A DNA stretch of 22,446 nucleotides from an uncultured bacterium. Its GTDB lineage: Bacteria > Bacillota_I > Bacilli_A > RF39 > UBA660. Positions 2,790 to 14,837 of the stretch are shown here, piece by piece (the stretch's first letter is position 1; every line of letters starts with the position of its first letter). The notes under the pieces are model-generated. The model was not told where the DNA came from. It did not search any database and was given only the letters and a program-made list of their open reading frames with translations. The position numbers and the translations under genes were made by a program. The DNA is taken from positions 1 through 22,446 of the forward strand of contig CASDWO010000074.1 in NCBI GenBank assembly GCA_949284575.1. The letters run 5' to 3'.

Positions 2790-4571
2790 ATGGTTAGTAA
2801 AATTAATAATTTAGTTAAAGATAAGAAAAAAGTAATTATTGCTTTTGTTATCTTAATTATTTTGATAGCAGCTCTTTATTTTTCATATGCTTGGTTAAGA
2901 ACTGTGTTATATGGAGAAAAAGATGTACAATTAATTGTAGGAGATATCGATTTAGTTTTAGATGAATCTAATACTGAAGGAATTCAACTTGTTAATGTTA
3001 TTCCTACTTATGATGAAGAAGGTAGAATGAATGAACCTTATAAATTTTCATTAGAAAATAAGAGTGATATTCCATTATATTTTACTTTATCTTTAGTTGA
3101 TGATGAGGAAGCTTTAGAATCTTGTCAAACTACAGATGGAGGAGCTTGTGAGTTATTAGATGGTAGGGATATTAGATATGATTTACAACTAGATGGAGAG
3201 ACATTTACAGGAACTTTATCAGATTCTTATATGGTAAGTTATGGAATTATTGATGCTCATGAAAAATTAGATGGAGAACTAAAGATATGGCTTAATATTA
3301 ATGCTACTAGCGAAGCGATGGGAAAAGTATTTTTAGGAAAATTAAAAGTATTTGCTTCTCAACAAGTAGATGAAGATTTTGTTCAAGGTAATGATGCTGC
3401 TAATCCTCCAGTAATGGATGATAATATGATTGCTATTAAACATGATGGGTATAACTGGGTTAAGACAGATATAGATAATGGTTGGTATAATTATGATATG
3501 CAAATATGGCCTAATGCTGTAACTGTTAAGAGTGATAAGTTAGCAGAATACCAAAGTGCAGGAGTAGGTACTGTAATAAATATGGATGATGTAGAAACTA
3601 TGTGGGTATGGATACCAAGATATAGTTATACAATAGCTAGTGAGAATGGAAGTACATATTATGGAAAAAAAGGGACTTATTTAACGACGACGCCAACAGC
3701 TGCTTTACCGGGAGAAATAGATGTTAAGTTTATTAAAACAACAGAAAAGGATGAAGGAACAGCAAGATATTTAGCTACAGAAGAGCCTAAAAATTACCGA
3801 ACACCTGATGCGTTTACATTTAATGGTGAAGAGTTAGATGGAATATGGGTAGGAAAATTTGAGACAAGTAGTAGTAATCCTGAATTAGTAAATGGAGGAG
3901 GAAATACTACAAGTTTAGATCCGATGATTAAGCCAAATGTAACAAGTTGGAGAAGTATAAATGTAAGCAATATATATAATGTGGGATTGAAGGTAAGTGC
4001 TGAAGGAAATAGATATGGCTTTAGTACAAATATGAATTCTCATGCTATGAAGAATACAGAATGGGCTGCAGTTGCCTATTTATCACAAAGTAAATATGGA
4101 AAATTAGGAAATCAAAACTTTAGTGGAGCAAATAAGGAAGTATATCAAAATAAAAGTGATTTATATATAACAGGATGTAGTTATGGAAGTCCAAGTAATT
4201 CTAATGAAGATTATGGATGTCAATATACATACGATAACAACGTAAGAGATGAGAATGGAATGATAGGAAGAGGAGTAGGAGCCTCAACGACTGGAACAAT
4301 CTATGGTATTTATGATATGAGTGGAGGAGCATGGGAATATGTCTTGGCCAACTATAATGATATTATAGCAAATAGTGGCTTTACTGAAATGCCTCCAGTA
4401 CAGTATTATGATAAATATACGACAGATAATATTTTAACAGCATGTAATGGAAATGAGTGTTTGGGTCATAATTTATCAGAAACACGAGGATGGTATAACG
4501 ATGCACAGACATTTGTCAACGCTGAATATCCATGGTTGGTGCGCGGCGGTGGCTGTCCATTGGTCGTGTGA
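2790..4571 (+). CDS. DGR target protein: N-terminal signal anchor, large extracytoplasmic region, C-terminal FGE-sulfatase/C-type-lectin-like domain. It appears truncated inside its VR.
   Basis: 593 aa. TM segment VIIAFVILIILIAALYF. C-terminal signatures typical of DGR CLec/FGE targets: NTEWAAVAYL, GIYDMSGGAWEYV, WLVRGG. The ORF stops at TGA-TAA (4569-4574) inside the VR, before the conserved SFRLV strand, which lies in another frame. Confidence 0.85.
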   Translation: MVSKINNLVKDKKKVIIAFVILIILIAALYFSYAWLRTVLYGEKDVQLIVGDIDLVLDESNTEGIQLVNVIPTYDEEGRMNEPYKFSLENKSDIPLYFTLSLVDDEEALESCQTTDGGACELLDGRDIRYDLQLDGETFTGTLSDSYMVSYGIIDAHEKLDGELKIWLNINATSEAMGKVFLGKLKVFASQQVDEDFVQGNDAANPPVMDDNMIAIKHDGYNWVKTDIDNGWYNYDMQIWPNAVTVKSDKLAEYQSAGVGTVINMDDVETMWVWIPRYSYTIASENGSTYYGKKGTYLTTTPTAALPGEIDVKFIKTTEKDEGTARYLATEEPKNYRTPDAFTFNGEELDGIWVGKFETSSSNPELVNGGGNTTSLDPMIKPNVTSWRSINVSNIYNVGLKVSAEGNRYGFSTNMNSHAMKNTEWAAVAYLSQSKYGKLGNQNFSGANKEVYQNKSDLYITGCSYGSPSNSNEDYGCQYTYDNNVRDENGMIGRGVGASTTGTIYGIYDMSGGAWEYVLANYNDIIANSGFTEMPPVQYYDKYTTDNILTACNGNECLGHNLSETRGWYNDAQTFVNAEYPWLVRGGGCPLVV

Positions 4572-4645
4572 TAATTTGATGTTTTTTTTTTACTCTATTT
4601 TTTGGGGTGGTGCTTGCTCGTTCCGCCTCGTGATGAGCGTGACTA
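4532..4645 (+). repeat. cassette C1: expressed-site variable region (VR) with 3' IMH-like GC block
   Basis: GCGCGGCGGT at 4541-4550, 68-nt core, CGTTCCGCCTCGTGAT at 4619-4634. The core has 0 Asn codons, is T-rich, and holds a T10 tract at 4582-4591. It is homologous to 11 downstream cassettes. Confidence 0.85.
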
Positions 4646-4658
4646 GCCCGTAGGGCTA
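4644..4658 (+). promoter_or_regulatory. GC-rich hairpin immediately 3' of the VR/IMH (candidate DGR target-recognition hairpin)
   Basis: TAGCCC (4644-4649), loop GTA, GGGCTA (4653-4658). It is present only after C1 and after none of the intergenic cassettes. Its position matches the hairpin/cruciform that follows the IMH in the Bordetella phage paradigm. Confidence 0.55.
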
Positions 4659-4815: not shown

Positions 4816-5183
4816 TAATTTTTAATTTATAATTTTCTTTTTGCTTGTTCCATATATTGGTGAGATTTTCTATAGTAAGGTAAATCTTTAAATTAAACTT
4901 TTTCTTTATATGGTTTTATTGTAATATTTGTATGTTCTTGGATTTTTATTTGATATATTTTTTTAAAACTCTTATTTAGAACTGTTTTGTTTCTAATATT
5001 TAATTTTTCTATACTTATTAATTATATTAGCTGATAGTAAAAAATGGAAAAAATTGTATTTGATTTTTATTGTTTAAATTTTATAAAATTTAATTGTCAT
5101 CTATATAGATGACAGGGATTAGGTCAAAATGCTTATGTATTTTCGTTGGATTAGTACTCTTTTTGTTAAGAGACTTTTCTTAT

Positions 5184-5296
5184 ATGGTTGGTGCGCGGCG
5201 GTGGCTGTCCATTGGTCGTGTGATAATTTGATGTTTTTTTTTACTCTATTTTTTGGGGTGGTACTTGCTCGTTCCGCCTCGTGATGAGCGTGACTA
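5184..5296 (+). repeat. cassette C2: near-identical intergenic twin of the expressed VR
   Basis: 113 nt against the 114 nt of C1. The only differences are T9 (5234-5242) against T10, and A5263 against G4612. In frame it reads RGGGCPLVV**FDVFFFYSIFWGGTCSFRLVMSVTMM*. An in-frame TAA lies 7 codons upstream. The 3' flank switches to the cassette-type spacer. Confidence 0.85.
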
Positions 5297-5514
5297 TGAT
5301 GTGATTATAGTTTAAGTTATTACTTATGTAATAAAAAATTTAATATCCTAGAGACTTAATTCCTACTTTTTTAAGTAAACTTATAATATGATGATGGGTA
5401 AGTAGTTAATTTGGGCGAAAATCAAAAATCATAGGGCAAGTACCTCTTGCCTTTTTTACTTTAGTGTTTTATTTTATATATGCGGGAGAAGTTTAATTTG
5501 TTTTTTTAGTTGTT

Positions 5515-5619
5515 GCGCGGCGGTGGTTATAATAATGACACTAATACCGGTGTTTTCTATTTCGATCATGCGGTTGAGTATGGTTCTACAGGTGTTAATG
5601 TGTCGTTCCGCCTCGTGAT
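5515..5619 (+). repeat. cassette C3 (26-codon core)
   Basis: Translates RGG-GYNNDTNTGVFYFDHAVEYGSTGVNV-SFRLVIGDY... with 4 Asn. TAG lies two codons upstream of the Arg codon. 3' class is ATAGGAGAC. Confidence 0.85.
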
Positions 5620-5836
5620 AGGAGACTACAATATAATTTTATTTAAGTTATTGCTATTTAGTAATAAAAAATATTTATTGTAGAACTTTTTCCTTTTTAC
5701 TTTAGTAAATAAAATAATGAAGTACTATTTTTCTAGGTAGTAAATACTGAACACTAGAAAAATATATTGTTGTTTGTAATACTTGTTTATGATAAATTTT
5801 ATGTAGGGAGAAGTTAATTTAGTTTTTCTAGTTGGT

Positions 5837-5941
5837 GCGCGGCGGTAGCTATAACGATAATACTGGTGCAGGTATGTTCAACTTTAATCGTACTAATACT
5901 TTAGGAGTTGGTAGTAATAATCATTCGTTCCGCCTCGTGAT
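5837..5941 (+). repeat. cassette C4 (26-codon core)
   Basis: RGG-SYNDNTGAGMFNFNRTNTLGVGSNNH-SFRLVI* with 7 Asn. TAG lies two codons upstream. 3' class is ATTTGAGAC. Confidence 0.85.
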
Positions 5942-6160
5942 TTGAGACTACAATATAGTTTTATTTAAGTTATTGCTATTTAGTAATAAAAAATATTTAT
6001 TGTAGAACTTTTTCCTTTTTACTTTGGTAAATAAATTAAAGAAGTATTATTTTTCTAGTTAGTAAATAGTGAACTCTAGAAAAATATATTGTTGTTGATA
6101 ATATTTGTTTATGATAAATTTGATGTAGGGGAGAAGTTTAATTTGTGTTTTTTAGTTGTT

Positions 6161-6265
6161 GCGCGGCGGTGGTTATAACAATGCTACTAATGCAGGTATG
6201 TTTTATTTCAATAACAGTAATATTACTGGTGGAGCTAATATCGATAGATCGTTCCGCCTCGTGAT
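6161..6265 (+). repeat. cassette C5 (26-codon core)
   Basis: RGG-GYNNATNAGMFYFNNSNITGGANIDR-SFRLVIGDY... with 7 Asn. TAG lies two codons upstream. Confidence 0.85.
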
Positions 6266-6481
6266 AGGAGACTACAATATAGTTTTATTTAAGTTATTAC
6301 TTATGTAATAAAAAATATTTATTGTAGAAACTTTTTCCTTTTTACTTTGGTAAATAAAATAATGAAGTACTATTTTTCTAGTTAGTAAATAATGAACACT
6401 GGAAAAATATATTGTTGTTTGTAATGTTTGTTTATGATAAATTTGATGTAGGGAGAAGTTAATTTTGTTTTTCTAGTTGGG

Positions 6482-6589
6482 GCGCGGCGGTAACTATAAT
6501 TCTGGTGGTGCCATTGCAGGTGTGTTTTATTTCAATAATAGTAATATTACTGGTGAAGCTAATATCAATAGATCGTTCCGCCTCGTGAT
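6482..6589 (+). repeat. cassette C6 (27-codon core)
   Basis: RGG-NYNSGGAIAGVFYFNNSNITGEANINR-SFRLVI* with 7 Asn. TAG lies two codons upstream. The 3' half is nearly identical to C5. Confidence 0.85.
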
Positions 6590-6814
6590 TTGAGACTACG
6601 ATATAAGATTATTTAAGTTATTACTTGTGTAATAAAAAATATTTATCATAGAAACTTTTTCCTTTTTACGAGTAGTATTAGTAAATAAAATAATGAAGTA
6701 CTATTTTTCTAGTTAGTAAATACTGAATACTAGAAAAATAAAATATTGTTAATAGATTTTCTTTATGATAAATTTTATGTAGGGGAGAAGTTAATTTTGT
6801 TTTTTTAGGTTGTT

Positions 6815-6913
6815 GCGCGGCGGTAGTTATATTAATTCTAATGCAGGTATGTTTTATTTCAATATTAACGTAGCTGGCAATGCAAATAGTAATGGCTCGT
6901 TCCGCCTCGTGAT
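6815..6913 (+). repeat. cassette C7 (24-codon core)
   Basis: RGG-SYINSNAGMFYFNINVAGNANSNG-SFRLVIGDY... with 7 Asn. An in-frame TAA lies 8 codons upstream. Confidence 0.85.
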
Positions 6914-7133
6914 AGGAGACTACAATATAGTTTTATTTAAGTTATTACTATATTGGTAATAAAAAATATTTATTGTAGAGACTTTTTCCTTTTTACTTTG
7001 GTAAATAAAATAATGAAGTATTATTTTTCTGGTTAGTAATTAGTGAACACTAGAAAAATATGATGTTGTTAATATTAATTATTTATGATAATTTTAATAT
7101 TGGGAAAAACTTTAAATTATTTTTTGCGTTATT

Positions 7134-7232
7134 ACGCGGCGGTAACTATAACAATAATACTAATGCAGGTGTGTTTAACTTTAATCATGTTGATGGTAAT
7201 ACTAATATTAATTGGTCGTTCCGCCTCGTGAT
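7134..7232 (+). repeat. cassette C8 (24-codon core, most Asn-rich)
   Basis: RGG-NYNNNTNAGVFNFNHVDGNTNINW-SFRLVI* with 10 Asn. The 5' block is ACGCGGCGGT. The leader variant is GGGAAAAACTT. An in-frame ATG at 7060 gives at most a 58-aa ORF (7060-7236). Confidence 0.85.
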
Positions 7233-7450
7233 TTGAGACTATGATATGAGATTGTTTAAGTTATTACTATATTAGTAATAAAAAATATTTATCATAGAAG
7301 TTTTTTCCTTTTTACTTTGGTAAATAAAATAATGAAGTACTATTTTTCTAGTCAGTAATTAGTGAACACTAGAAAAATATAGTGTTGTTAATAGTATCTA
7401 TTTATGATAATTTTAATATAGGGAGAAGTTATATTTATTATTTTGTTATT

Positions 7451-7549
7451 GCGCGGCGGTGGTTTTAATAATACGACTAATGCAGGTGTTTTCAACTTTG
7501 GTAACACTCTTGGTAATGGTGACAGCAATAATTCGTTCCGCCTCGTGAT
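7451..7549 (+). repeat. cassette C9 (24-codon core), unit with truncated spacer
   Basis: RGG-GFNNTTNAGVFNFGNTLGNGDSNN-SFRLVI* with 8 Asn. The next cassette follows after only 219 bp. The spacer lacks the CTTTTTCC segment and the TTTTTCTAG/CTAGAAAAA hairpin. Confidence 0.85.
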
Positions 7550-7669
7550 TTGAGACTATGATATAAGATTGTTTAAGAAGTTATTACCTATGTAAAAAAT
7601 TTATTGTTAATAATACCTATTTATGTTAATTTTTATATAGGGGAAAGTTAATTTTGTTTTTTAGTTGTT

Positions 7670-7768
7670 GCGCGGCGGTAACTATAATAATTCTAATGCA
7701 GGTATGTTTTATTTCAATACCTGGAATATTGGTAATACTAGTATTAATGGCTCGTTCCGCCTCGTGAT
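7670..7768 (+). repeat. cassette C10 (24-codon core)
   Basis: RGG-NYNNSNAGMFYFNTWNIGNTSING-SFRLVI* with 8 Asn. TAG lies two codons upstream. The 5' half is nearly identical to C7. Confidence 0.85.
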
Positions 7769-7992
7769 TTGAGACTACGATATAGTTTTATTTAAATTAT
7801 TACTTATGTAATAAAAAATATTTATCATAGAAACTTTTTCCTTTTTACGAGCAGTATTAGTGAATAAAATAATGAAGTACTATTTTTCTAGTTAGTAATT
7901 AGTGAACACTAGAAAAATATAGTGTTGTTAATAGTATCTATTTATGATAATTTTAATATAGGGAAAAGGTAAATGTATTTTAGTTGGTTGGT

Positions 7993-8091
7993 GCGCGGCG
8001 GTGTATTTAGTAATAATACTGATGTTGGTATTTTCTACTTTAGTTATACTATTGGTGGTGGTAGCATCTTTAGTTCGTTCCGCCTCATGAT
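7993..8091 (+). repeat. cassette C11 (24-codon core, adenine/Asn-poor, VR-like flanks)
   Basis: RGG-VFSNNTDVGIFYFSYTIGGGSIFS-SFRLMMKDY... with only 2 Asn. The 5' flank GGTTGGTGCGCGG matches the VR. The 3' block is the variant CGTTCCGCCTCATGATGAAAGAC, where the VR has ...GTGATGAGCGTGAC. An in-frame ATG at 7973 gives at most a 53-aa ORF. Confidence 0.85.
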
Positions 8092-8282
8092 GAAAGACTA
8101 CGATATAGTTTTATTTAAGTTATTACTTATGTAATAAAAAATATTTATCATAGAAACTTTTTCCATTTTACGAACGGTATTAGTAAATAAATTAAAGAAG
8201 TATTATTTTTCTAGTTAGTAGATAGTGAATACTAGAAAAATAAAATATTGTTAATAATATCTATTTATGATAATTTTGATAT

Positions 8283-8566
8283 AGGGAGAAGTTATATTTA
8301 TTATTTTGTTTTGCGCGGCGGTAGCTATAATGCGACTTCTAATGCAGGTGTGTTTAATTTCAATACTTGGAACAATGGTAATGCTAATTCTAATGGATCG
8401 TTCCGCCTCGTGATTTGAGACTACAATATAGTTTTATTTAAGTTATTGCTATTTAGTAATAAAAAATATTTATTGTAGAGACTTTTTCCTTTTTACGAGC
8501 AGTATTAGTAAATAAAATAAAGAAGTACTATTTTTCTAGTTAGTAAATAGTGAATACTAGAAAAAT
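8283..8566 (+). ncRNA. candidate DGR template RNA unit (leader, TR-like core, structured spacer) adjacent to avd
   Basis: Leader AGGGAGAAGTT (8283-8293) can pair with GACTTTTTCCT (8480-8490) and so enclose the core. The nested CTACAATA/TATTGTAG and TTATTGCTA/TAGTAATAA hairpins are present, as is the terminal hairpin ATTTTTCTAG (8530-8539) / CTAGAAAAAT (8557-8566). The same architecture repeats in most units. Transcription is not demonstrated. Confidence 0.45.
8313..8414 (+). repeat. cassette C12 (25-codon core), positional candidate for a canonical TR next to avd
   Basis: RGG-SYNATSNAGVFNFNTWNNGNANSNG-SFRLVI* with 9 Asn. It is the last unit, and its spacer runs directly into the avd RBS. Confidence 0.85.
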
Positions 8567-8587
8567 AGTGGATGAGGAGTGATAACT

Positions 8588-8944
8588 ATGGATGATTTAG
8601 AAGGATTAGTTATTTATAAACAATATGTTGAACTTATTTATTATACTCTTTCTATTTTACTTAAATATCCTAAATCTGAAAGATTTTCTTTAGCTCAAGA
8701 TATTAAAAATACTACTTATGCAGGACTTAAAGATATTATTTATGCTCAAAAAGAATATGATAAGAAAAAGAGACTTTCTTATTTAAATGAACTTGATGCT
8801 AATTTAAAAATAGTTAAAGTTTTGATTAGAGTTTCTCATAAGAAAAAATATATTACTTCAAAAAATTATACAGCTTGGAGTAAGAAAATTGCTAATATTT
8901 CTAATCTTAATGGAGGTTGGATTAAATCATGCCTCATACGATAA
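8588..8944 (+). CDS. avd: DGR accessory variability determinant (Avd, four-helix-bundle family)
   Basis: About 118 aa, basic and helical, with the pattern typical of Avd / 23S-rRNA-IVS-like proteins (YKQYVELIYYT...KYPKSERFSLAQDI...LDANLKIVKVLIRVSHKKKYI). GAGGAG at 8574-8579 precedes ATG 8588; the ORF track starts at GTG 8579. It overlaps the RT start by 16 nt. Confidence 0.85.
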   Translation: MDDLEGLVIYKQYVELIYYTLSILLKYPKSERFSLAQDIKNTTYAGLKDIIYAQKEYDKKKRLSYLNELDANLKIVKVLIRVSHKKKYITSKNYTAWSKKIANISNLNGGWIKSCLIR

Positions 8945-9993
8945 GAAATGCTTATTTGAAACATTTAACTATAGAGTCATTAATTGAAGCTCATGAGAGG
9001 GCTAGTAAGACAAAGAGATATTCCAAAGAAGTATTAAAATTTGAAATTGATCTTGAGAGTAATATAGTTAATTTATATAAGAAATTAAAAAATGGGACAT
9101 ATAAAATGGGAAAATATCGAGAATTTAAGATATTTGAGCCTAAAGAGAGGATAATTAGATCTTTACCTTATGTTGATAGAATTGTTCATCAGTGGTATGT
9201 TCATGAGTTTATAAAACCTTATGTTATACCTAGGTTTATTGTTGATTCTTATGCTTGTATAGACGGAAGAGGAACTCATAAAGCGGTTGATAGGATTCAA
9301 GCTTATATGCAAAATATGAAAAATAAATATGGTACTTACTATATAGTAAAATGTGATATTAAGGGATTCTTTTATAATATAGATAAAGATGTATTATTAA
9401 ATATTATGTTAAAATTTATTAAAGATGAGAAATTAATTTGGCTTACTAAAGAGTTTATTTATGGAGATGAAGATGAGATTGGATTGCCAATTGGTAATTA
9501 TACTTCACAATTTTTTGCTAATATTTATATGAACGAGCTTGATCATTATGCTAAAGAAGAATTGAAACTTAAGTATTATGTTAGATATATGGATGATTTT
9601 GTGTTTTTGGTTAAAACAAAAGAAGATGCTAGGAAATATATGGAACTTATTGCAGTTTTTCTAAAAGAAAAGTTACATATTCAATTGAATCATAAGAGTG
9701 GATATTATCCTAATAAAATGGGCCTTGATTTTTGTGGATTTCGTATTTATGAGAGTTATCGGTTACTTAGAAAGAGAAGTATTAAGAAAATAAAAAGAAA
9801 GATTAGAAAGTGGAATGAATTGTATTCTCATAATTTGTTAGATTTAGAGAAAACAATTTTAGAATGGAATTCTTGGCTTGGACATAGTTCTCATGCTAAG
9901 TGTTATAAATTGCAATGGGATATGTATAATAGGATTCTTTTTAAAGAGCATTTGAAGAAACCTTATGTGGAGACTTATGGACGAATATTATAG
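8929..9993 (+). CDS. DGR reverse transcriptase
   Basis: 354 aa. RT motifs include IVKCDIKGFFYNID, the DGR-typical LPIGNYTSQFFANIYMNELD (the SQ motif) and YVRYMDDFVF (YMDD). The size is compact with no maturase or endonuclease domains, and it is translationally coupled to avd. Confidence 0.93.
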   Translation: MPHTIRNAYLKHLTIESLIEAHERASKTKRYSKEVLKFEIDLESNIVNLYKKLKNGTYKMGKYREFKIFEPKERIIRSLPYVDRIVHQWYVHEFIKPYVIPRFIVDSYACIDGRGTHKAVDRIQAYMQNMKNKYGTYYIVKCDIKGFFYNIDKDVLLNIMLKFIKDEKLIWLTKEFIYGDEDEIGLPIGNYTSQFFANIYMNELDHYAKEELKLKYYVRYMDDFVFLVKTKEDARKYMELIAVFLKEKLHIQLNHKSGYYPNKMGLDFCGFRIYESYRLLRKRSIKKIKRKIRKWNELYSHNLLDLEKTILEWNSWLGHSSHAKCYKLQWDMYNRILFKEHLKKPYVETYGRIL

Positions 9994-10035
9994 TTTTAAT
10001 AAGTTCTTTCTTATTAATGAAAGAGGGTAAGTATT

Positions 10036-10326
10036 ATGGATATATATAAAAAGAGTAGGGGTATTTTTATTGTAAATATAGCAATTATATTATTTGTATT
10101 ATTGGTTTTAAGTCCTAATCTTCTGTTTGTTTTTGAGTTTATTATTGATATATTTGTATTATTTCTAACTTTACGTCTTATAAATGATAATATTTTTGTA
10201 TATAATGAGAAATTAAAAAAAGTAACAGTAATTTTTACAATATTTATTATAGGCTATTGTTTGTTATTGTACTTTAAAAATTTTCATCCTTTCTTTTTGG
10301 TGATTACTTTTCTTAGATATATGTAA
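10036..10326 (+). CDS. small hydrophobic membrane protein, unknown function
   Basis: 96 aa with about three predicted TM stretches (IFIVNIAIILFVLLVL, FIIDIFVLFLTL, IFTIFIIGYCLLLYF). No recognisable family. It could be a spurious AT-rich ORF. Confidence 0.35.
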   Translation: MDIYKKSRGIFIVNIAIILFVLLVLSPNLLFVFEFIIDIFVLFLTLRLINDNIFVYNEKLKKVTVIFTIFIIGYCLLLYFKNFHPFFLVITFLRYM

Positions 10327-10396
10327 TTTTTTTTAGCTTTTTTAGAAGCAATTTTTATAGTTAAGGGCATGTTAAAGAGAAAATAATAAAAATATA

Positions 10397-10426
10397 TTGA
10401 CAATTAGTTGGAGATGATGTTATATT
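10397..10426 (+). promoter_or_regulatory. candidate str-operon promoter
   Basis: TTGACA (10397-10402), 18-nt spacer with TG at 10418-10419, then TATATT (10421-10426). It lies about 100 nt upstream of rpsL. Confidence 0.55.
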
Positions 10427-10447
10427 ATCTATGCTGGTTTAAATTTG

Positions 10448-10466
10448 GTTTTGCTTCGGGCAAAAC
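10448..10466 (+). promoter_or_regulatory. stem-loop in the rpsL 5' leader
   Basis: GTTTTGC (10448-10454), loop TTCGG, GCAAAAC (10460-10466), followed by TTTATTT. It could be a leader structure or attenuator. Function is unknown. Confidence 0.3.
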
Positions 10467-10527
10467 TTTATTTAGAACTAAAAATGATACACCTGGATAT
10501 GTGTAAAGAAAGGAGCGAGAAATTACA

Positions 10528-10941
10528 ATGCCTACAGTGAATCAATTAGTACATAAAGGTAGAGGTAAGAAAGTTCGTAAGAGTAAATCTCCAGTACTTT
10601 TAGTGGGAGTTAATACAATTAGAAGAAAACAAACAAATAATCCATCTCCTCAAAAACGTGGAGTATGTACTCGTGTTGGTACGAAGACACCTAAGAAACC
10701 AAACTCAGCTTTACGTAAGTATGCACGTGTTCGTTTATCTAATGGTAAGGAAGTAGATACATACATTCCTGGTATTGGACATAACTTACAAGAGCATAGT
10801 GTTGTATTAGTTCGTGGTGGACGTGTTAAGGACTTAATCGGAGTTCGTTATCATATTATTCGTGGCGCACTAGATACAGCAGGAGTTAAGGATAGAAAAC
10901 AAGGCCGTAGTAAATACGGGGCTAAAAAGCCTAAGAAATAA
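10528..10941 (+). CDS. rpsL: 30S ribosomal protein S12
   Basis: 137 aa: MPTVNQL..., [49 protein letters not shown](I)[22 protein letters not shown] lies upstream. Confidence 0.97.
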
Positions 10942-11000
10942 AAACTGTTCTTAAAAACCTAAGAATTAATATGTAATTGGAATTGGAAGGAGGATAAATT

Positions 11001-11468
11001 ATGCGTAAAAGACGTGCTGTTAAAAGAGATATTTTACCAGATCCTATATATAAGTCTAAAACTGTTGCTAAACTTATTAATACAGTTATGCTTGATGGTA
11101 AAAAAGGTGTTGCGCAAACTATCGTTTATGATGCCTTTAATATTGTTAAAGATAAAACTTCAAAAGATTCTTTAGAAGTATTTAATCAAGCGATGGAAAA
11201 TATTAAACCTCTTTTAGAAGTTAAATCTAGAAGAGTAGGTGGAGCTAATTATCAAGTCCCTCAAGAAGTTACTCCAGCAAGAGCTGAAGCTTTAGCTTTA
11301 CGTTGGTTAGTTACTTTTTCAAGAAAACGTGGTGGACGTGGAATGGCTGATAATTTAGCTAGTGAAATTATAGATGCATCTAATGGAACTGGTGCAGCTG
11401 TTAAAAAACGTGAAGATACCCACAGAATGGCTGAAGCTAATAAAGCTTATGCACATTATCGTTGGTAG
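11001..11468 (+). CDS. rpsG: 30S ribosomal protein S7
   Basis: 155 aa: [14 protein letters not shown]..., [26 protein letters not shown]-type C-terminus. RBS GGAAGGAGG. Confidence 0.97.
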
Positions 11469-11480
11469 GAAGGAGTTATT

Positions 11481-13550
11481 ATGGCAAGAGATACGTCTTT
11501 AGAGAAGACAAGAAACTTTGGAATTATGGCTCATATCGATGCTGGTAAGACTACAACAACAGAACGTATTTTGTTCCATGGTGGTAATATCCATAAGATT
11601 GGAGAAACTCATGATGGTGCTAGTCAAATGGACTGGATGGAACAAGAAAAAGAGCGTGGTATTACAATAACAAGTGCAGCTACTACAGTACACTGGAAAA
11701 ATCATCGTTTTAATATAATCGATACTCCAGGACACGTAGACTTTACTATCGAAGTTAGTCGTAGTTTAAGAGTTTTAGATGGTTCTGTAGCTTTGCTTGA
11801 TGCTCAAGCTGGTGTTGAACCTCAAATGGAAACAGTTTGGAGACAAGCTGATGAATTTATGGTACCTAGAATTATTTTTGCTAATAAAATGGGTAAAATG
11901 GGTGCTGACTTTAATTATAGTCTTAAATCAATAAAAGATCGTTTAGGAGTTAATGCTAAACCTATTGAATGGCCAATTGGAGCTGAAGATGATTTCCGTG
12001 GAGTTATTGATTTAGTTACTATGAAAGCAATTGAGTTTGATGGTAAACCTGAAGAGGAAGCTAAGGAAATAGATATTCCTACTGACTTAAAAGATTTAGC
12101 AGAAGAAAAACATGCTGATTTAATTGACAGTGTAGCTGAATTTGATGATGAAATGATGGAAACATATTTAGATGGTGGAGAAGTAACTGTTCCTATGATT
12201 AAACGTGCTATTCGTAAAGGGTGCCTTGCAACTAAGTTCTTCCCAGTTATGTGTGGAGATGCTTTAGGAAATAAAGGTATTAAACCTTTAATGGATGCAG
12301 TTATTGATTATTTACCTAGTCCTTTAGATGTTGAATCAATTAAAGGACATAACTTAAAAGGAGAAGAGGAAGTTCGTCATCCAAGTGATAATGAACCATT
12401 TAGTGCTTTAGCATTTAAAGTTATGACTGATCCTTTTGTTGGACGTTTAACATTCTTTAGAGTTTATTCTGGTCATTTAGCTAGTGGTAGCTATGTACTT
12501 AACTCAACAAAAGATTCTAAAGAAAGAATTGGTCGTATATTACAAATGCATGCTAATAACCGTAAAGAGATTAGTGATGTATATACTGGTGATATAGCGG
12601 CTGCTGTTGGACTTAAGAATACTACTACTGGTGATACATTATGTGATGAAAAGAAACCTATTATCTTAGAGAAACTTATTGTTCCTGAGCCAGTTATTCA
12701 ACTTGCTGTTGAACCTAAATCTAAGGCAGATCAAGATAAGATGGCACTTGCATTACAAAAACTTGCTGAAGAAGATCCAACATTTAAAGTTCATACTGAT
12801 CATGAAACAGGTCAAACTGTTATTGCTGGTATGGGTGAGTTACACCTTGATGTATTAGTTGATCGTATGAAACGTGAATTCCATGTGGAAGCTAATGTTG
12901 GTGCACCACAAGTTGCTTATCGTGAAACTATTAAAGCTAGTGCTGAATGTGAAGGTAAGTATATTAAACAATCTGGTGGTCGTGGACAATATGGTCACGT
13001 TTGGATTAAATTTGAACCAAATCCTGATAAAGGTTATGAATTTGTTGATCAAATCGTAGGTGGTGTTGTTCCTCGTGAATATATTCCTGTTGTTGATAAA
13101 GGTTTACAAGAAGCAATGCAAACTGGTATTTTAGCAGGATATCCTATGATTGATATTAAAGCAACATTATTTGATGGTTCATACCATGATGTAGACTCTA
13201 GTGAAATGGCATTTAAGATTGCAGCGTCTATGGCTTTAAAAGAAGCTAAGAATAAGTGTCAAGCAGTACTTCTTGAACCAATCATGAAAGTTGATGTTAC
13301 AACACCTGATGAATACTTCGGTAATGTTATGGGAGATTTAACTAGTCGTCGTGGTCGTCCACTTGGACAAGAGTCACTTGGAAATGTGGTTAAATTATCA
13401 GCAATGGTTCCACTTTCTGAGATGTTTGGATATGCTACTAACTTACGTAGTAATACTCAAGGTAGAGGTAACTTCGTTATGACATTTGATCATTATGAAG
13501 ATGTACCTAAAAATATTGCTGAAGATATTATTAAAAAGAGTGGAAATTAA
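11481..13550 (+). CDS. fusA: translation elongation factor G
   Basis: 689 aa: G1 [27 protein letters not shown]-like NKMGKMGA, and a C-terminal domain IV/V signature. It sits in the canonical position after rpsG. Confidence 0.97.
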
Positions 13551-13582: not shown

Positions 13583-13611
13583 TTGCAAATTTAGTAATTG
13601 TTAGATAAAAT
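13583..13611 (+). promoter_or_regulatory. candidate internal promoter for tuf
   Basis: TTGCAA (13583-13588), 17-nt spacer, TAAAAT (13606-13611), in the fusA-tuf intergenic region. Confidence 0.4.
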
Positions 13612-13646: not shown

Positions 13647-14837
13647 ATGGCAAAACAAAAATTTGATCGTACTAAACCACATGTTAATATTGGTACAATC
13701 GGACACGTTGATCATGGTAAAACTACATTAACTGCAGCTATTACTAAATGTTTACATGACAAAAACCCTGCATGGGCTGATTTTACAGATTATGCAAACA
13801 TTGATAAAGCTCCAGAAGAAAGAGAACGTGGTATTACAATTAATACTGCACACGTAGAATACCAAACTGAAAAACGTCATTATGCTCACGTTGACTGCCC
13901 AGGACATGCTGACTATGTTAAAAACATGATTACTGGTGCTGCTCAAATGGATGGTGCAATTCTTGTAATTGCTGCTACTGATGGAGCTATGGCTCAAACT
14001 CGTGAACATATCCTATTATCACGTCAAGTTGGAGTACCTCGTATGGTTGTATTCTTAAATAAATGTGATATGGTTGATGATGAAGAGTTAATTGATTTAG
14101 TTGAAATGGAAGTTCGTGACTTATTAAACGAATATGGATTTGATGGAGATAATACTCCAGTTATTAAGGGTTCAGCTCTTAAAGCTCTTGAAGGAGAAGA
14201 GAAATATGTTAACGCAATCTATGAACTTATGGATGCTGTTGATGAATGGATCCCAACTCCTGAACGTGATACTGATAAACCTTTCTTAATGAGTATTGAA
14301 GATGTATTCACTATCACAGGTCGTGGTACAGTTGTTACTGGACGTGTTGAACGTGGACAATTAAAACTTAACGATGAAGTTGAAATCGTTGGTATCCGTG
14401 ATACTCAAAAGACAGTTGTTACTGGTATCGAAATGTTTAGAAAACAACTTGATACAGCTGAAGCTGGAGATAATGCAGGAGTTTTACTTCGTGGTATTTC
14501 TCGTGAACAAGTTGAACGTGGACAAGTTCTTGCTAAACCTGGTAGTGTTAAACCTCATAGTAAATTTAAAGCTGAAGTTTACGTACTAAGTAAAGAAGAA
14601 GGTGGACGTCATACTCCATTCTTTAGTAACTATCGTCCACAATTCTATTTTAGAACTACTGATGTTACTGGTGTAATCACTTTACCAGAAGGTGTAGAAA
14701 TGGTTATGCCTGGTGATAATGTAACAATGGATGTTGAATTAATTCATCCAATTGCTATTGAAAAAGGTACTAAGTTCTCTATCCGTGAGGGTGGACATAC
14801 TGTTGGTGCTGGTGTTGTTTCTGAAATCGAAGGATAA
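13647..14837 (+). CDS. tuf: translation elongation factor Tu
   Basis: 396 aa from ATG 13647 ([33 protein letters not shown]), preceded by GAGGAGG at 13631-13637. The ORF-track start at 13617 adds an implausible KKKRRKNN extension. Confidence 0.97.

Follow-up and report, generated by a model that had tools for sequence, protein, structure and literature searches.

The 113-nt repeat C2 (positions 5184-5296) of the window, by which we mean the whole 22,446-nt stretch of DNA analyzed here, is, judging by sequence comparison, this locus's version of a conserved first unit (U1), predicted to be transcribed separately and to be the first of eleven templates in a DGR. We consider it probable that U1 is an adenine-depleted nonsense template of this multi-template DGR, which the retroelement copied into the VR of the target gene next to it.

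The window contains a chromosomal DGR composed of a target gene, its VR (C1), C2, ten regular adenine-rich template units, avd and a reverse transcriptase (RT) gene. The gene order is clpP, a PRK-family kinase gene, the target gene, the template array, avd, RT and rpsL-rpsG-fusA-tuf. The G+C content of the window is 28%, and adenine makes up 36% of all its nucleotides. The source is a short-read metagenome scaffold (ENA; L001/L005); compared with L001, the window shows two differences in 19,993 nt, at 13760 and 13771, both near the start of tuf. The relatives used for comparison are MAGs named Candidatus Onthousia or 'uncultured Bacilli/Tenericutes'. The main genes and sites of the window are as follows.

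2790..4571, + strand: target gene with an N-terminal membrane anchor, cut to 593 aa by stops in the VR (ORF; homologues)
4532..4645, + strand: C1, the VR now carrying first-unit (C2) sequence (TGA TAA 4569-4574; T10 4582-4591; G4612)
4620..4658, + strand: 3' boundary of the VR, IMH-like GTTCCGCCTCGTGATGAGCGTGACTA, then the hairpin TAGCCC-GTA-GGGCTA (4644-4658)
5470..8575, + strand: ten regular template units with GC blocks at 5516, 5838, 6162, 6483, 6816, 7135, 7452, 7671, 7994 and 8314
8579..8944, + strand: avd, encoding the DGR accessory protein (Pfam bAvd, 84 bits; NCBIfam DivGenRetAVD, 83.7 bits against a cut-off of 80)
8929..9993, + strand: DGR reverse transcriptase (RVT_1; IGNYTSQ and YMDD)

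At the sequence level, the locus as a whole has the defining features of DGRs. The 354-aa RT has IGNYTSQ in motif 4 and YMDD, in agreement with the IGxxxSQ and YxDD patterns of the DGR clade, and its NCBIfam matches are limited to sub-threshold hits to group II and retron families. The adjoining gene codes for a bAvd protein that scores above the curated NCBIfam cut-off. Mismatches between template and VR occur at template adenines: there is one such substitution in the window, and related loci show 106 adenine-site changes and one other in regular pairs (n=8) and four and none, respectively, in U1 pairs (n=6). The VR is at the 3' end of the target gene and is followed by a GC-rich boundary and a hairpin (4620-4658). 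The same layout is present in homologous loci, and the IMH-like boundary with the GC hairpin is the same at the VRs of L010, L015, L017-L025 and others.

Homologues of the target protein number more than 2000; they are usually 615-627 aa long and end in ...SFRLVMS(V/P).., and the window protein ends in RGGGCPLVV*. Residues 1-589 align with the homologues, the gene is otherwise intact, and the break lies within the VR. Searches of Pfam, NCBIfam and PDB sequences returned no match for the target gene product, and the structure that AlphaFold2 predicted for an intact homologue from 25 aligned sequences was of no use (pLDDT 37). A C-type-lectin/FGE-like fold is hinted at by the C-terminal motif ...RGG...SFRLV only, with no database match. 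Individual MAGs have many target paralogues (at least 12 contigs in CAMMBX01; three loci in the 1.5-Mb chromosome OZ006970.1), and a scan of genome contigs (L017-L095) places most of them away from any RT. Directly 3' of the RT gene there is a small conserved ORF (10036-10326) of 96 aa in the window and 116 aa in L002 and L003. It has no Pfam or NCBIfam match and could be a further accessory gene.

According to both pairwise alignment and the repeat finder (families D12/D13), C1 and C2 are identical except for two differences, and such a repeat is far beyond chance. C1 has a run of ten Ts (4582-4591) opposite nine in C2 (5234-5242), and G4612 opposite A5263. The limits of identity (start ATGGTTGGT, end GACTA) and the eight adenines of the C2 core, the 69 nt between CGCGGCGG and GTTCCGCCTC, are as given in the initial annotation of this DNA. 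It had also correctly noted an in-frame TAA 5' of C2 (7 codons away in its count, 6-7 in ours) and, 3' of C2, an array-type spacer (TTTAAGTTATTACTTATGTAATAAAAAAT, repeat family D10) instead of the GC hairpin. It had further described C2 as lacking the GGGAGAAG leader of the other units. There is indeed none directly upstream, but an equivalent, GGGATTAGGTC, is located further upstream (5115-5125), so that the 'missing' leader is not absent but replaced by a different conserved one. What the initial annotation did not mention is the in-frame TGA TAA of C1 (4569-4574); the target gene therefore ends at 593 aa, compared with about 620 aa in homologues. We also considered C1/C2 as an adenine-mutagenized copy of a regular cassette, and rejected this for all ten cassettes tried (9-22 non-adenine mismatches and 7-16 gap columns).

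The unit that includes C2 is made up of the following parts.

5060..5089, + strand: promoter-like site, TTGATT-18-TAAAAT, recognized from the sequence and kept in position across loci
5095..5114, + strand: 5' hairpin TGTCATCTATATAGATGACA (fold z-score -4.9)
5115..5125, + strand: GGGATTAGGTC, 5' strand of the helix closing the template loop, equivalent to the GGGAGAAG leader in regular units
5184..5296, + strand: C2, the adenine-poor template repeat (alignment, repeats, locus comparison), with the 5' GC block at 5194-5201, the core at 5202-5270 (8 A; T9 5234-5242; A5263) and the 3' block with a VR-type boundary at 5271-5296
5338..5433, + strand: structured 3' RNA element, similar to Rfam RT-14 below threshold (25.1 bits against a gathering score of 48.1)
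5353..5363, + strand: 3' strand of the closing helix, GACTTAATTCC, pairing with 5115-5125
5433..5459, + strand: intrinsic terminator, conserved in position across loci

U1 orthologues occur at the same place, directly 3' of the target gene, in at least 12 related loci of Candidatus Onthousia-like Bacilli (the U1 loci are the window, L010, L017-L020, L023, L025, L037, L061, L096, L101 and L222). They have in common the promoter, the hairpin, a GGGATTA leader, an adenine-poor core of 67-72 nt and the 3' element. The -35 and TG-extended -10 elements are conserved in position in 13 loci, the 5' hairpin is present in 10 loci with a varying upper stem, and the closing helix shows covariation at two positions. 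Column identity is 0.91-0.98 for the GC blocks, promoter, closing helix, 3' element (0.91 across 10 loci) and terminator. The conservation of the promoter and the covariation in the closing helix, together with the RT-14-like element and the terminator, predict that C2 is part of a transcribed RNA. The column identity of the core is 0.56 and that of the leader 0.59. By this measure, we found no sequence-specific constraint on the core, which evolves as fast as the leader; consequently, nothing points to selection on its nonsense content.

The cores of U1 units contain 6-12 adenines and about 50% T. Stops or a frameshift in the VR frame are present in 10 of the 11 adenine-poor units translated, the exception being L096, which is in frame and stop-free. 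In adenine content (8 in 69 nt) as in its in-frame TGA TAA, C2 departs from the adenine-rich design of a DGR template, whose AAY codons encode a functional variable segment. Adenine is scarce and T abundant in the U1 leader as well (18% A and 50% T in 5126-5183 of the window and other loci), and the 3' element has 38% A; the depleted zone coincides with the loop enclosed by the closing helix.

The ends of U1 resemble the VR more closely than do those of regular units. The 3' boundary common to U1 and VR is 26 nt in 9 of 14 loci, compared with 15-18 nt for regular units; in the window, C2 shares 26 nt and the regular units share 10-15 nt. Thus, C2 does not show the difference between IMH* and IMH expected of a DGR template, though it lacks the GC hairpin. 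On the 5' side, the match to the VR is 17-19 nt for U1, usually the longest, and 9-16 nt for regular units. The initial annotation had interpreted C2 as chimeric, a hybrid of expression-site core and boundaries with an array-type 3' flank. The comparison of loci speaks against reading it as a recent chimera: the VR-type boundary is a lasting trait of first units in those 9 of 14 loci, and the flank is the unit's own conserved RNA element.

Two loci, L034 and L063, have the U1 promoter and leader in front of a still-regular, in-frame core with 21 adenines. In L034, this core differs from that of the neighboring unit (TR4038) at 11 adenine sites and 5 other sites. The presence of a still-regular, partly adenine-depleted core behind this leader suggests that U1 began as an ordinary template and then lost adenines. 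From the same core and from the VR-type 26-nt 3' boundary, we infer that the adenine poverty of U1 resulted from past adenine mutagenesis of U1 itself. A different arrangement is seen in L015:10133-10330 (the same as L033:12058-12250), where the U1 promoter, leader and an adenine-poor core follow a target gene and the unit ends in a VR-type boundary and GC hairpin, without the 3' RNA element. No array or RT is present within the 8-10 kb fetched on each side of this target. The unit looks like a recombination product of a U1 and a VR in the U1 state.

The regular units, with a period of about 320 nt, consist of a promoter-like site, a leader of the GGGAGAAG type, a core and a 3' RNA element. 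Their cores are 75-84 nt long, contain 17-27 adenines and are in frame between the CGCGGCGG and GTTCCGCCTC blocks. The leader (GGGAGAAGTT-like) pairs with a segment 3' of the template (AACTTTTTCC-like), forming on average 10.8 of 11 pairs over 79 units, with C/T changes matched by G/A. The 3' spacer of every unit resembles the full-length RT-14 RNA at 21-32 bits, below the gathering score of 48.1 (in the window, the spacers at 6272-6410, 6948-7061, 7267-7380, 8469-8568 and 5338-5433).

The regular units serve as working templates. Eight equal-length TR-VR pairs show changes at 106 of 211 adenines (77 A>G, 23 A>T and 6 A>C), and their single mismatch at another base is in L061. The VRs and their cognate units are as follows.

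L010: cognate unit at 7616, upstream of the target gene
L017: cognate unit at 13606
L019: cognate unit at 7644
L020: cognate unit at 13609
L023: cognate unit at 10141
L034: cognate unit at 4038
L061: cognate unit at 14649
L028: cognate unit from L010

The array position of the cognate unit varies from genome to genome. In the species of L019, 15 VR alleles are split 8:7 between two units of different length, and residues whose codons have no adenine are unchanged. The arrays range in size from 3 to 24 units; the largest one seen (L023:3413-12050) has one U1 and 23 regular units after a single target gene. The template in use by the VR of L010 (7616-7706) is outside the main array, and the L010 array itself is interrupted by an AAA_14/DUF4143 ATPase gene (11187-12506). 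In L101, an IS240-type transposase (10033-11463) is inserted between the array and avd.

We also looked for the window locus in other samples by an identical RT or upstream kinase: L001/L005 are the same scaffold and L002-L009 stop before the VR, and L002 alone was informative, on cassette stability. This 98.9% identical strain has a different cassette (151-260) in place of window 5838-5943, and the eight cassettes that follow downstream have identical cores, which points to cassette turnover inside an apparently otherwise frozen array. A clpP look-up for the same locus in other samples gave no match. When JGI metagenomes were scanned for the U1 leader motif TGATAGGGATTAARTC, the 120 matches listed were all by chance, and none had DGR blocks.

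A VR carrying the U1 sequence of its own contig was found in six independent alleles.

Window: 1 of 8 adenines changed (A>G)
L018: 0 of 12 adenines changed
L037: 0 of 10 adenines changed
L096: 0 of 7 adenines changed
L101: 1 of 12 adenines changed (A>T)
L222, identical to L223: 2 of 10 adenines changed (A>T and A>G)

Over these six alleles, on which the transfer statistics rest and to which the window adds one substitution, 4 of 59 adenines and 0 of 356 other nucleotides are changed (Fisher p = 3.7e-4). Amino-acid variants of further U1-state alleles (I>V, M>V and T>A) are consistent with A>G changes. The adenine-only signature is, on this evidence, that of the retroelement, unlike ordinary recombination or assembly error. 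The initial annotation had already seen the single A-to-G difference as running in the template-to-VR direction and C2 as a possible cognate template, while rating the evidence for mutagenic homing within the window (one of eight adenines) as weak. The evidence from the window is weak indeed; however, the related loci support C2 as the cognate template of the present VR, every substitution in the six alleles being on a template adenine. The comparison of C1 and C2 across strains, which had been proposed as a check, was made on these loci: the first unit is stable while the VRs differ, and substitutions are on adenines.

The same U1 and array are accompanied by a functional, unrelated VR in L017 and L061, and by a U1-state VR in L018 and L101. 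Moreover, three alleles, P0004 (unmutated), P0177 and P0179, are 0-2 adenine changes away from one U1. These two observations identify U1 as the donor, and the direction of transfer is from C2 to C1. The U1 state accounts for 7 of the 120 cluster representatives listed, and for 2-3 of the 10-15 members listed in each of the species-level clusters 1, 4 and 7. ON and U1-state alleles are found side by side within such clusters, and some U1-state alleles recur across samples. A U1-type nonsense VR is also present in a target paralogue next to Fe-ADH, aldehyde dehydrogenase and ABC ATPase genes (L099:5427-5502); the first unit may therefore reach paralogues outside the array-bearing clpP-kinase locus, although this 6-kb contig ends too soon to show any following array.

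As donors, U1 units are distinct in their low rate of change. VRs derived from U1 have 6.8% of adenines changed, compared with 50% for regular units (about 7-fold lower; p = 1.5e-10; Mann-Whitney test over events p = 0.002). The value is also low (binomial p = 8.6e-6) beside the 30.65% per-adenine change measured in E. coli for BPP-1 cDNA (PMC12875486). Trinucleotide context as the cause was rejected, as it predicts 15.3 changes and 4 are observed. Equally, it is unlikely that the majority base of a consensus hides a cloud of mutated adenines, since contigs of low coverage (2-9x), and mutated alleles found unchanged in two samples, point to clonal alleles. Three explanations are possible: sparse adenines may escape the error 'cascades' that have been reported (bioRxiv 10.64898/2026.06.12.731847), the surviving adenines may be the refractory ones, or a fraction of transfers may be RT-independent. 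In view of the low mutagenesis, part of the transfer could thus proceed without RT.

The mechanism that we favor can be outlined as follows. The U1 RNA would be built like that of regular units, its leader pairing with a segment on the 3' side of the template, the template ends being rich in GC and the 3' element structured. The retroelement would copy it into the VR of the adjoining target gene, presumably through RNA and cDNA, over the same tract as for regular units, that is, from the 5' GC block through the 3' GC/IMH block. In the window, such an event would yield C1, in which an adenine has been read as G and the homopolymer has gained a T. The target gene would then stop at TGA TAA inside the VR and lose its last ~30 residues. 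The VR would retain its own 3' boundary and hairpin and, by implication, still be an acceptor, which a regular unit might later rewrite.

This mechanism leaves room for different views of what U1 is for. One is that U1 is roleless: a decayed template, still transcribed, that occasionally ruins a VR, which is tolerated because genomes carry many target paralogues. We give this view slightly less than an even chance. It agrees with the core evolving as fast as the leader, with the in-frame, stop-free U1 of L096 and with the 12 or more paralogue contigs in one MAG. On the other hand, the strong conservation of the promoter, closing helix, 3' element and terminator (0.91-0.98), the retention of the unit as first in nearly all array loci examined and the abundance of U1-state alleles (7 of 120 representatives) are not readily expected of a decayed template. 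More tentatively, and in our judgment with a rather lower probability, U1 may be a maintained 'null template', a low-mutagenic nonsense sequence. Besides diversifying its target from 10-24 alternative templates, the retroelement would then use it to turn the surface protein off, with the acceptor site left in place. If true, this would provide reversible, RNA-templated phase variation on top of hypermutation. A conserved scaffold with a drifting core fits both the OFF-template and the decayed-template readings.

Homologous DNA gene conversion, in which U1, as the nearest repeat, overwrites the VR via shared flanks independently of RT, is an improbable source of the U1 state. The almost unmutated copies (0 of 12, 0 of 10 and 0 of 7 adenines in L018, L037 and L096) would be natural under this model, as would the proximity of U1 to the VR and its longest flank identity with it (26 nt 3' and 17-19 nt 5', against 15-18 and 9-16 nt for regular units). 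However, 17-26 nt of flank is little for RecA-type exchange, and the tract in L101 ends 9 nt or less from the core. In the reconstituted BPP-1 system, moreover, RT-independent recombination between TR and VR is rare (PMC12875486). Gene conversion also does not account for four of four substitutions being on template adenines (p = 3.7e-4) and of the A>G and A>T types seen with regular units, nor for the I>V, M>V and T>A variants, which fit A>G.

An assembly artefact, either a hypervariable VR bridged by reads of monomorphic C2 or a duplicated or collapsed segment, is very unlikely. It is true that the window is a short-read metagenome scaffold, that shared blocks could mislead small-k graphs and that contigs from other samples (L006-L009) break in the target gene before the VR. 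Nevertheless, C1 and C2 have two differences and different flanks. The U1 state is also present in a circular metaFlye chromosome (L037, OZ006970.1) and in the L101 'tig' contig, whose name is suggestive of a long-read assembler, and two samples independently yielded the same allele with two adenine changes (L222/L223). Nor would an artefact confine the differences to adenines. The collapsed or duplicated assembly that the initial annotation allowed for is thus contradicted by the differing flanks and by recurrence of the state in other assemblies with adenine-only differences. The same holds for its suggestion of exchange 'in either direction', as a first unit that is stable across strains with different VRs argues against transfer from VR to C2. 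Such a reverse copy, making C2 a record of the VR, is hardly credible: the VR-type 3' boundary of C2 (GAGCGTGACTA) and the partly depleted L034 core (11 adenine-site against 5 other differences), suggestive of mutagenized sequence once received, would agree with it, but at the U1 position different species have homologous C2-type cores, to which the VRs are unrelated, U1 is identical in L017, L018 and L101 despite different VRs, and in all four substitutions an A of U1 stands opposite a G or T of the VR.

In the usual picture of DGRs, one invariant adenine-rich template diversifies one or more targets. The locus described here would extend this picture in three respects: one RT serves a tandem array of templates, with the choice among them differing between genomes and even within a species; a conserved template is both adenine-depleted and nonsense; and, among assembled alleles, a sizeable minority have this nonsense template written into the target. 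If true, template choice would be a second axis of variation, accompanied by built-in silencing of the target, and U1 would be a natural case of a template with a target-type boundary whose adenines have eroded as self-targeting would predict. Two useful leads for engineering may be the array of small template RNAs, each self-contained, and a template whose copying introduces few errors.

Among known systems, the BPP-1 DGR has the same IGxxxSQ-type RT with Avd, adenine-only changes from template to VR, a GC-rich 3' boundary with a hairpin after the VR and a template RNA between structured segments. It differs in having a single TR inside the avd-brt operon, unlike the present array, in which every one of the eleven templates (L023 has as many as 24) has its own promoter and 3' RNA element. 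Here, one template is adenine-poor, nonsense and provided with the 3' boundary of the VR, whereas in BPP-1 IMH* differs from IMH. A TR that is given an IMH reportedly becomes itself mutable (Doulatov 2004), and by analogy this would fit the adenine loss of U1. The prevalence of A>G in our data also matches the C-misincorporation bias reported for the BPP-1 DGR (PMC12875486). More than one template per RT is known from surveys of DGRs that have at least two TRs (n=53; PMC11661182) and from TR variants of Treponema denticola (PMC4891356), but these concern only counts or between-strain variants. Neither tandem arrays whose templates are transcribed independently nor a dedicated adenine-poor unit turned up in the literature searched, although absence there is not proof. 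As for the RNA itself, the 3' spacers of C2 and the regular units align to the whole model of the Rfam RT-14 RNA (RF02921), including the UAGUAG...GCGAA stem, at 21-32 bits, which, being below the gathering score of 48.1, means resemblance and not membership. This orphan motif may be the template-adjacent RNA of the present DGR group.

The other natural comparison, on account of a resemblance in function, is with the silent-cassette antigenic variation of Neisseria pilE/pilS and Borrelia vlsE/vls, in which an expression site is combined with an array of donor cassettes and changed by RecA-dependent segmental DNA conversion. The likeness is that donors stay constant while the expression site changes, and that some donors give non-functional products. 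Silent cassettes of this kind are promoterless donors without base bias, and the units analyzed here have promoter-like sites, RNA structure and adenine-specific differences. Thus, in contrast to pilS and vls, the donors in the present locus are RNA genes predicted to be transcribed, the whole segment between the blocks is replaced and the mutations are adenine-specific.
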